The translations under genes and the position numbers were made by a program. Below, piece after piece: positions 9,946 through 12,125 of a stretch of 25,695 nucleotides of DNA. This DNA comes from a bacterium (GTDB lineage Bacteria > UBA9089 > UBA9088). Every line of letters begins with the position of its first letter. Position 1 is the first letter of the stretch. The notes under the pieces are model-generated. The model was not told the DNA's origin and did no database searches. It saw nothing but the letters and a program-made list of their open reading frames with translations. The DNA is taken from contig JBFLYE010000186.1 in NCBI GenBank assembly GCA_040756715.1, positions 1 through 25,695 of the forward strand, read 5' to 3'.

Positions 9946-10737
9946 ATGGAAAGAAGTTTATGGACAGCGGCAACGGGAATGAATGCCCAGCAATTTCACC
10001 TTGATGTAATAGCCAATAACCTGGCAAATGTGAATACAACAGGCTATAAAAGGGATAGGGCAGAGTTTGAAGACCTCCTTTATGCCACATTGAGGCTTCC
10101 GGGAACACCCATTACAGGTGGAGGAAAAATACCAAGTGGCATACAGGTTGGCCATGGTGTAAAGGTAGCCGGGACACAAAAGATTCATTTGCCTGGCTCG
10201 CTTGAGGAGACAAAGAATCCATTGGATCTTGCCATTGAGGGCCCTGGATTCTTCCAGGTTCTCCTTCCAAATGGCGAGATAGGTTATACCAGGGATGGAG
10301 TATTCTCAAAGGATTCTGAGGGAAGAATTGTAAATGCAAATGGCTATATCTTACAACCTGAGATAACCATTCCTGAAGATGCAACAGATATATCCATTAT
10401 GGAGGATGGCTCTGTATTTGCCATAATGGGAGGGGATATGAAGACACCAGAGGAGATTGGAAAGATAGAGCTTGTCCGCTTTGTCAATCCTGGTGGCTTA
10501 TCAGCTATGGGTAAAAACATCTTAAAACAAACCGCTGCCTCAGGTGAGCCTTTAACCGGAACACCGGGTGAAGGTGGATTTGGAAGGATTGCCCAGGGAT
10601 TTATCGAGATGTCAAATGTTAATGTAGTAGAGGAAATGGTTAGGATGATTGTTGCCCAGAGGGCATATGAATTTAGCTCAAAGGCAATCCAGACAGCAGA
10701 TTCTATGCTGGGTGTGGTAACCACCTTAAAGAGATGA
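9946..10737 (+). CDS. flgG: Flagellar basal-body distal rod protein FlgG
   Basis: [63 protein letters not shown]; SD AGGAGGT. Confidence 0.96.
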
Positions 10738-11435
10738 TGAAGGAGTCGGGAGTCAAGAGTCAAGAGTCAAGAGTCAAAGCTATTGGCTATTGGCTATTTA
10801 TCGCTTTTAATGTTTCTGCTCAGATTCTTTCGGGAGATGAGATAATGAGGGTTTCAAAAGAAAAGATAGAAAGCCTTGTTAATGATGGAAGGATTGAGAT
10901 TGAAGAAAGGAAGATTTCCGACCTCTCCCTTCCGGATGGAAACCTTAGATTAGAGGCAAATCCTAGTATTTCATACCGAAATGCCTTGGTTGAGATAAAA
11001 ATCTTACTTGATGGAAAGGAGGAAAAAAGGATAAAGCAATCCTTTAGAATAAGAAAATTTCAGGATGTATTTGTTGCGGCAAAGCCATTAAACACAAAAG
11101 ACATTATCACAGAGGATATGATAAAAAAAGAAGAGAGAGAAATAACAAGCATATCTGGGTATATTACAGAAAATGAAAAAATTGTTGGAAAGGAGGTAGG
11201 AAGGAGAATCCAAGAAGGAGGTATAATCCTTTCACATTATATTAAAGAACCTCCTTTAATCCATTTTGGCGATATTGTTTCTCTCCTAAAGAATGGCAAT
11301 GGATTTTCTATAAAAACAAAGGGAATGGCTATATCAACCGGTTATAAGGGAAAGGAGATTTCTATTAGAAATCTTGCATCAAATAAGATAATTAAAGGAT
11401 TTGTTGTAGAAAAGGGGACAGTGGAGGTGAAATAA
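10734..11435 (+). CDS. flgA: Flagellar P-ring formation chaperone FlgA
   Basis: Signal peptide ending VSA; SAF-like region and C-terminal [36 protein letters not shown]; between flgG and flgH. Confidence 0.88.
10742..10798 (+). repeat. Composite heptamer array [(G/A)GAGTC(A/G)]x5 + [(A/G)GCTATT]x3 encoding the FlgA signal peptide
   Basis: GGAGTCG GGAGTCA AGAGTCA AGAGTCA AGAGTCA A AGCTATT GGCTATT GGCTATT. Confidence 0.92.
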
Positions 11436-11520
11436 ATGCGGAATGCGGAATGCGGAATGCGGAATGTAAAGGCCTGTTGTCTGTTGTCTGTTGTCTGTTG
11501 TCTGTTGTCTGTTGTCTGTT
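11436..11520 (+). repeat. Composite heptamer array [ATGCGGA]x4+ATGTAAA, then [CTGTTGT]x6+CTGTT, encoding the FlgH signal peptide
   Basis: Read directly: 11436-11470 and 11474-11520. Confidence 0.96.
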
Positions 11521-12050
11521 TTGCCGAGAGCTTGTGGCTTGAGGGCTTTGAAAAAAGCATATTTTCAGACCATAAAGCCGCAAGGATAGGCGATCTCATT
11601 ACCGTTGTGATTGTGGAATCTGCAAAGGCACAGGATATGTCATCCTCCAAGCGCGATAAGGATTTAGAGATAGGTGTTCCACAAGGCACAGGTAAATTAG
11701 ATTTTATCCCAAAGCTTGGTCTAAAAGGAGAAAGTAAGTATAAAAGATCGGGTGCTACATCAAAGGCTGGCTCTATCCAGGCAAAGGTTACTGCCTCTGT
11801 TTTAAAGGTTATGCCAAATGGGAATCTATTAGTAGAGGGAGAAAAGAGGGTTCGCATAGATAATGAAGAGCAAGTTGTCTATGTCTCTGGTATTGCAAGG
11901 CCAGAGGATATTGATCCAAATAATGTTGTCCTTTCAACATATCTGGCAGATGCAAAGATTGAATATAGGGGAGAGGTTAAGGTTTCAAGCAAAGAAAAGC
12001 CATTTATCGGAGTAAGAATATTCCAAAAGCTTTTCGGGTGGATATTTTAA
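11436..12050 (+). CDS. flgH: Flagellar L-ring protein FlgH
   Basis: SLW, FSDHKAARIGDLITVVIVES, VLKVMPNGNLLVEGEK, VSGIARPEDI, STYLADAKIEY; SD GGAGGTG 8 nt upstream. Confidence 0.93.
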   Translation: MRNAECGMRNVKACCLLSVVCCLLSVVCFAESLWLEGFEKSIFSDHKAARIGDLITVVIVESAKAQDMSSSKRDKDLEIGVPQGTGKLDFIPKLGLKGESKYKRSGATSKAGSIQAKVTASVLKVMPNGNLLVEGEKRVRIDNEEQVVYVSGIARPEDIDPNNVVLSTYLADAKIEYRGEVKVSSKEKPFIGVRIFQKLFGWIF

Positions 12051-12052
12051 AA

Positions 12053-12125
12053 ATGCGGAATGCGGAGTGTGGAATGCGGAATGTAAGGCTTAAGGCTATT
12101 GGCTATTGGCTATTGGCTATTGGCT
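12053..12125 (+). repeat. Composite heptamer array [ATGCGGA-type]x5 + [GGCTATT]x4 encoding the FlgI signal peptide
   Basis: ATGCGGA ATGCGGA GTGTGGA ATGCGGA ATGTAAG GCTTAA GGCTATT x4 GGCT. Confidence 0.95.

Follow-up and report, generated by a model that had tools for sequence, protein, structure and literature searches.

Coding repeats of the pentamer CTCTT are located in the leader-peptide region of the opa genes of Neisseria, where their copy number sets the reading frame (PMC3960869; bioRxiv 10.1101/2020.09.16.300947). Here we analyze a flagellar locus that shares with opa a tandem repeat with a unit length not divisible by 3, placed inside signal-peptide code and, as we infer for the present case, read as a leader. 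The locus lies on a contig of 25,695 nt (JBFLYE010000186.1, C186; hereafter the window) of the metagenome-assembled genome G000 of an uncultured groundwater bacterium (1.55 Mb in 218 contigs, 37% G+C, completeness 96%). Within the window flgF, flgG, flgA, flgH, flgI and the rod-binding-protein gene follow each other head to tail, and the 5' ends of flgA, flgH and flgI carry six arrays with a period of 7 nt, two in each gene. The first-pass annotation of this DNA knew of no described equivalent; opa is one. A description of signal peptides coded by two heptamer modules was not found in the literature that we searched. While opa contains one type of array in many copies, with documented high-frequency switching of surface adhesins, the genes studied here contain two arrays with different readings and 3–7 copies, they are housekeeping genes of the flagellar rings, no off-state is seen, and the units are replaced between strains.

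Over-represented heptanucleotide repeats have been reported from Xanthomonas (GGGAATC), Nostoc (GGGGA(C/T)T) and Calothrix (PMC4692102 and work cited there). Like the repeats of Xanthomonas and Nostoc, our arrays have a 7-nt unit, prefer about 4 units, lie at the borders of co-oriented genes and vary in length and sequence among close relatives. However, those repeats are G-rich (and capable of forming G-quadruplexes), intergenic and under-represented in coding DNA, whereas we find about 40 mostly A/T-rich unit types and many arrays in frame inside genes. A third comparison concerns the palindromic elements of Rickettsia, which Ogata and colleagues reportedly described in 2000 as dispersed palindromes of 100–150 nt and conserved sequence that are inserted in frame in protein genes. 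In both cases repetitive DNA is tolerated in frame at permissive coding sites, but ours consists of tandem arrays of ~32 nt with varied units, and linkers are replaced with no net gain or loss of length.

The 5' ends of flgA, flgH and flgI

All three genes have the same layout: a polar/basic array is followed by a hydrophobic array and then by a non-repeat cleavage region (VSA in FlgA, CFA in FlgH, VFA in FlgI; Table 1). Calling arrays with Tandem Repeats Finder and by direct reading of the sequence, we recovered all six arrays with the units and at the places that the first-pass annotation had given, as well as the cleavage regions after them. Two details had to be changed, namely the size of the second flgA array, which is no more than about 3 units, and the start of flgI, for which both GTG 12038 and ATG 12053 are candidates. 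The claimed order of 7-residue cycles was likewise confirmed, polar or basic in the first array (mean Kyte–Doolittle hydropathy −1.83 for RVKSQES and −0.81 for MRNAECG) and hydrophobic in the second (+1.61 for GYWLLAI and +2.89 for LLSVVCC), and none of the four units contains a stop triplet on the sense strand. In shuffled sequence (GAGTCAA)3 is expected 0.00 times; thus the arrays are far beyond chance.

Judged from these sequences and those of relatives, FlgA, FlgH and FlgI very likely carry Sec-type cleavable signal peptides whose n- and h-regions are coded by heptamer arrays and which would be translated, used for export and cleaved. Our signal-peptide measures are rule-based (net charge, uncharged stretch, hydropathy and the residues at −3/−1). 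Counted from any in-frame ATG, the N-termini have a net charge of +2 (FlgA), +2 (FlgH) and +3 (FlgI); the uncharged stretches comprise 14, 18 and 16 residues with a mean hydropathy of 1.5–2.7, and the residues at −3/−1 are V/A, C/A and V/A, respectively. In these properties (net charge +2 or +3, 14–18 uncharged residues, small residues at −3/−1) the array-coded N-termini resemble the N-termini of orthologues that lack arrays. The proposed order of an n-region followed by an h-region thus agrees with the measures and recurs in relatives. Pfam matches over the mature parts (PF13144 ChapFlgA, PF02107 FlgH and PF02119 FlgI) are all above the cut-offs. The mature starts QILSG (FlgA), ESLW (FlgH) and MPAVRIK (FlgI) align with those of relatives, SLW being kept in more than 30 of them, and in all FlgH and FlgI relatives that we examined a signal peptide immediately precedes the conserved mature start. 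In G000 the sole hydrophobic N-terminal stretch of the three proteins is the array-coded one; without the arrays they would have none, and the arrays are therefore the only possible n- and h-regions.

Translation would start at an ATG that adjoins or overlaps the stop of the upstream gene, which in flgH and flgI would be an ATG of the ATGCGGA array itself. Indeed, the flgA ATG overlaps the flgG stop as ATGA, likewise in G001 and G002 of the same genus; the flgH start at 11436 is the first ATG of its own array, with GGAGG 8 nt before it; and ATG 12053 of flgI has GGTGGA 10 nt upstream, while GTG 12038 is homologous to the flgI ATG of G003, an array-free genome of another genus. The purine-rich array would then give a polar, net-positive n-region and the T-rich array the hydrophobic core, and signal peptidase I would cut in the retained ancestral c-region. 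As this cut lies 3' of the arrays, the mature proteins would be free of the repeat.

One might instead place the true starts 3' of the arrays, which would then be untranslated intergenic or 5'-untranslated repeats as in Xanthomonas and Nostoc, the long open reading frames (ORFs) being an artefact of stop-free units. Frames do run at no cost through units that lack stops in every frame, in-frame starts occur downstream of the arrays (ATG 10846, TTG 11532, ATG 12143), and arrays lie upstream of the flgH ATG in genomes of family f8 and, in one case in G000, upstream of the fliG ATG. However, downstream starts would leave FlgA, FlgH and FlgI without the hydrophobic N-terminus that every orthologue has there, and ATG 10846 of flgA is not conserved, with Phe in its place in G003. 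Untranslated arrays also leave unexplained why the polar-then-hydrophobic order recurs with unrelated units and why stop-free strands show a 28:4 bias (see below). We give this explanation little credence.

Several points weigh against the arrays being read as signal peptides. The n-regions contain acidic residues and are long, with 12–15 aa, while in flgI of G001 about 85 aa precede the hydrophobic array. An open frame across an array also counts for less than it normally would, since none of the three frames of the units has a stop. Genome-wide, the synonymous share of deviations from the unit consensus is 27–30% compared to 21–22% expected; synonymous changes are not enriched, and the deviations hence do not point to purifying selection on the peptide sequence. 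For the same reason we dropped the two synonymous substitutions in the polar array of flgI as evidence of selection. Finally, the public annotation of L053, a contig of the congeneric assembly GCA_040757735.1, starts flgI at an ATG 3' of the arrays (L053:627, 333 aa), which also favours downstream starts and predicts a P-ring protein without signal peptide.

Table 1. Features at the 5' ends of the flg genes (positions in the window) and in-frame arrays in other contigs of G000
Feature	Position	Strand	Evidence or remark
flgA CDS	10734..11435	+	ORF; PF13144 ChapFlgA, E 1.3e-29
flgA predicted signal peptide, 29 aa	10734..10820	+	n-region net charge +2, 14-residue uncharged stretch, V/A at −3/−1
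flgA polar array, GAGTCAA-type, 5 units	10743..10777	+	GAGTCAA x4 at 10750-10777; first unit, from 10743, imperfect
flgA hydrophobic array, GCTATTG x2.9, read AIGYWLF	10779..10798	+	Tandem Repeats Finder; comparison with G003
GGAGG Shine-Dalgarno	11423..11427	+	8 nt 5' of flgH ATG; read directly
flgH CDS	11436..12050	+	ORF; PF02107 FlgH, E 2e-49
flgH predicted signal peptide, 30 aa (23 aa from second in-frame ATG, 11457)	11436..11525	+	cleavage CFA/ESLW
flgH polar array, AATGCGG x4.6, read MRNAECG	11435..11466	+	ATG present in every frame
flgH hydrophobic array, CTGTTGT x6.7, read CCLLSVV	11474..11520	+	Tandem Repeats Finder
flgI CDS	12038..13087	+	ORF; PF02119; start GTG 12038 or ATG 12053
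flgI predicted signal peptide, 30 aa	12053..12142	+	cleavage VFA/MPAVRIK
flgI polar array, AATGCGG x4.6	12052..12083	+	Tandem Repeats Finder; 2 substitutions, both synonymous in frame
flgI hydrophobic array, GGCTATT x4.6, read AIGYWLLAIG	12094..12125	+	also in flgI of G001
In-frame array, ProRS	C69:3288-3321		Pfam
In-frame array, MnmG	C107:3625-3656		Pfam
In-frame array, SerRS	C207:23605-23636		Pfam
In-frame array, class I aminoacyl-tRNA synthetase	C35:15456-15489		Pfam
In-frame array, LeuRS	C120:4582-4615		Pfam
In-frame array, CarB-like gene	C211:8634-8674		identity from flanking translation only

Orthologous loci and exchange of arrays

Whole-genome, protein and contig searches gave more than 30 orthologous loci. 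G000, G001, G002 and L053 belong to the genus of the window; G003 (record UBA9088) belongs to another genus of the same family, G005 and G006 to a second family of the same order, and L051, L052 and P0018 are further uncultured relatives. Other searches added little: the flg locus was carried by none of the sequencing runs found in two run searches (the single listed run gave unrelated array matches only), a scan of metagenome contigs for the locus returned one relative at 40% identity and nothing closer, exact-protein look-ups for FlgH and FlgG gave no match, and a protein-atlas feature search with the N-terminus returned FlgH clusters only and nothing on the signal.

Array-coded signal peptides are predicted in these four members of the genus, in G005 and G006, and in L051, L052 and P0018, and no stop interrupts the frame between the upstream ATG and the mature part in any of these array-bearing configurations. 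In flgI of G001 about 100 repeat-coded codons are open in frame, while the other two frames contain stops. Altogether we found at least 12 configurations (FlgA, FlgH, FlgI and a protein on contig C25) with different units, always in the order polar array, hydrophobic array, native c-region. The unit pairs of FlgH, for instance, are ATGCGGA+CTGTTGT, ATGCAAA+CTGTCTA, AGTCAGG+TTTTACC and AAGTCAA+TTACTTC; those of FlgA and FlgI vary similarly, and flgI of L053 contains an octamer array, TTTGTGCC. The C25 protein, an exported protein unrelated to the Flg proteins, has the same two-module build in three congeners. The strongest argument for the arrays being read, and selected, as signal peptides is that unrelated DNA words converge on this polar-then-hydrophobic order. 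In flgI of L052 (L052:2130-2215) the polar ACAGAGC and hydrophobic TCTGTGT arrays are near reverse complements and could pair as a hairpin in DNA or mRNA.

The first-pass annotation had proposed that export signals were made de novo from repetitive DNA where none existed, and the n- and h-regions are now indeed wholly repeat-coded. A comparison of N-termini across relatives, as it had suggested, places a signal peptide at the same position with or without arrays. In the array-free orthologues (of G003, G004, G005, P0019 and P0021) the signal peptides are of the ordinary kind and share the cleavage point, and the c-regions are conserved between array-bearing and array-free orthologues. G003, which has no arrays, has ordinary signal peptides of 18–21 residues at these positions, with identical mature starts after them; the cleavage point of the flgA signal peptide aligns between the two genomes. 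Moreover, AIGYWLF, the reading of the hydrophobic flgA array, aligns with LLAIGFWIL in G003, where the DNA consists of three degenerate units of this heptamer; the array is thus homologous to an existing h-region. To our knowledge, FlgH and FlgI are Sec substrates wherever they have been described. As ordinary signals at the same site and shared c-regions are present in array-free relatives, the arrays overwrote or expanded ancestral signals and did not create export de novo, an origin that we regard as extremely unlikely.

The further claim that modules are swapped between neighbouring genes fared better. In G001, flgA and flgI share an identical block of 99 nt that spans five array types with their junctions. 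Between G000 and L053 the mature-coding DNA is 98.5% (flgH) and 97.5% (flgI) identical, whereas the flgI cassettes are unrelated (50.6% identity; 94 versus 97 nt, with the frame kept). The L053 cassette consists of an AAAACTN array and the TTTGTGCC octamer array; searching G000 for its donor, we found matches to the widespread TTTGTGCC arrays and no composite donor. The L053 contig ends at the 5' end of flgH, where G000 has the flgH arrays. The flgA arrays of G000 and G002 have equal unit counts and a different mix of unit variants, which is the mark of concerted evolution at constant length. To judge from these sequences, the copying or exchange of modules between genes and strains is real. 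The junction word GCGGAATGTAA, considered as a marker of a shared cassette, was rejected as not diagnostic because it also occurs at two unrelated sites.

Such variation raises the question of adaptive contingency switches as in opa, in which slipped-strand gain or loss of units would toggle the synthesis of the L-ring, the P-ring or the chaperone at high frequency. The unit is not divisible by 3 and lies inside leader-peptide code downstream of the start, as in opa; the flgI cassette differs within one species; and in our simulation flgI and flgA lose their in-frame ATG when the hydrophobic array changes by a single unit, as does flgH in one of three registers. In the ATG-bearing arrays, however, any copy number leaves an in-frame ATG, making slippage neutral. 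The arrays are also short (3–7 units), and no out-of-frame state was seen among the array-bearing configurations compared. The copy number of the hydrophobic array is identical between species (flgI in G000 and G001, flgA in G000 and G002, flgH in G001 and G002), and the difference between strains is the replacement of the whole flgI cassette rather than the gain or loss of one unit. The same arrays moreover occur within genes for aminoacyl-tRNA synthetases, which are essential, so that switching there would be lethal. Taken together, switching of this kind seems unlikely.

Heptamer arrays throughout the genome

In G000 we counted 45 perfect arrays of at least 3 copies with period 7, but 2 with period 6 and none with periods 9–11. 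At a Tandem Repeats Finder score of at least 40 there are 356 non-overlapping period-7 arrays (median 32 nt and 4.6 copies), which are enriched at gene borders. About 244 of these belong to an element resembling a miniature inverted-repeat transposable element (MITE), ~230 nt in length, with TATAGT-type terminal inverted repeats and two inverted (AATTTTG)x4.6 arrays; at two arrays per element this corresponds to roughly 120 copies. The element was noted at 36-67 of the window and is found genome-wide (e.g. C133:2850-3100 and C120:8950-9200), and contig ends often fall in this element. The other 112 arrays have unique flanks and account for the ~40 unit types.

About 70 of the 112 arrays with unique flanks (counted from a context listing) fall within stop-to-stop ORFs, among them signal peptides and essential genes. 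Deep within genes, in-frame arrays were found in ProRS, SerRS, LeuRS, a class I aminoacyl-tRNA synthetase, MnmG and O-antigen ligase, all confirmed by Pfam. In ProRS and MnmG they stand in place of variable linkers, the length of which is altered little if at all, and other units occupy the same site in congeners. Where an array is stop-free on one strand only, this strand is the sense strand of the adjacent gene in 28 cases, versus 4 in which it is not.

An N-terminal hydrophobic segment is present in 12 of 26 genes with N-terminal arrays, versus 382 of 1471 others (odds ratio 2.4, p = 0.04). From a reading of context listings, seven of the eight N-terminal arrays with hydrophobic reading belong to exported proteins (FlgA, FlgH, FlgI, the lipoprotein LptE, whose identity is confirmed by Pfam, and three others); the eighth is the array upstream of the fliG ATG. 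Polar arrays occur also at the N-termini of cytoplasmic proteins. At 2392-2422 of the window, an ATGCAAA array forms the start and first 10 codons (MQNAKVKMQN) of an Fe-S protein that is rich in Cys and probably cytoplasmic, and polar arrays are thus not limited to exported proteins. The specificity for signal peptides implied by the first-pass annotation does not hold, since the same arrays are found inside aminoacyl-tRNA synthetases, MnmG, other housekeeping genes and intergenic DNA. Signal peptides are one tolerant site among several, and the reading of an array is filtered by context.

Another explanation is that the arrays act mainly as nucleic-acid elements, protein-binding or structural (e.g. 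GGA motifs bound by CsrA on flagellar mRNAs), their translation being incidental. ATGCGGA arrays do present one GGA per 7 nt across start codons, the two flgI arrays of L052 are near complementary, and inverted array arms occur in the MITE-like element and around genes of PF05635 (23S rRNA intervening-sequence protein). However, a CsrA gene was not found in G000 at its completeness of 96%, within G000 the two arrays of a pair show no complementarity, their units also lie inside many unrelated genes, and scans for promoters and terminators between the flagellar genes remained at chance level. We consider this explanation very improbable.

Some further repeats may be recorded here. Each of the three PF05635 genes of G000 (C120:5663-6081, C5:2896-3261 and C164:10149-10506) has a heptamer array beside it, and the one on C120 an octamer array on its other side too. 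The TTTGTGCC/GGCACAAA octamer arrays constitute a second dispersed element (C217:4072-4103, C51:10243, C174:14874 and ~40 other loci in G000), with ACAGCTAAAC within ~20 nt downstream in several of the copies printed; it probably corresponds to the TGTTTAGC element of the first-pass annotation. Four paralogous multi-pass membrane proteins (C133:724-755, C217:4039-4069, C3:2671-2704 and C197:4329-4358) carry a different heptamer array each in the same basic loop. In the window, a lysine-rich ORF of 23 codons made of a 9-nt repeat (GAAGGAAAA x7.4) lies at 13101-13172 between flgI and the rod-binding-protein gene; at the corresponding place in L051 a gene of 29 codons is called.

Turnover and significance

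The arrays are best described as simple-sequence repeats common to this clade, of ~32 nt and with units of 7 (some 8) nt, which are concentrated at the borders of genes and in coding segments under weak constraint. With the genes of the operon so close that they touch or overlap, an array placed at the border between two of them lands in disposable signal-peptide code. Selection would keep only stop-free units that read as their place demands, as a polar stretch close to the start and as a hydrophobic one ahead of the cleavage site. Homogenisation driven by slippage, together with segmental copying or replacement between arrays, may then turn the arrays over and give the appearance of module swapping. 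The array-coded export signals are a by-product of a genome-wide repeat class, not a new way of inventing export signals.

A more far-reaching and so far speculative possibility is a fast, clade-wide exchange of cassettes, by recombination between arrays or by templated rewriting from the arrays of the MITE-like element, which would rebuild N-terminal export signals even within species. The signal peptide would then serve as a landing pad, the ATG-bearing arrays as a start immune to slippage, and the hydrophobic array as an on/off or dosage switch for the assembly of the L- and P-rings.

In practice, gene callers disagree on starts of this kind, as in the flgI of L053 that is annotated without signal peptide, and assemblies break at these arrays. 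Heptanucleotide repeats, so far described as intergenic, can occupy coding DNA, both in predicted signal peptides and in the linkers of essential enzymes. For the proteins of the essential flagellar rings, the n- and h-regions would consist of a few copies of a 7-nt word, for which sister strains substitute unrelated words while keeping the order of the parts. The locus may thus serve as a natural experiment on the minimum of sequence information required by a signal peptide.

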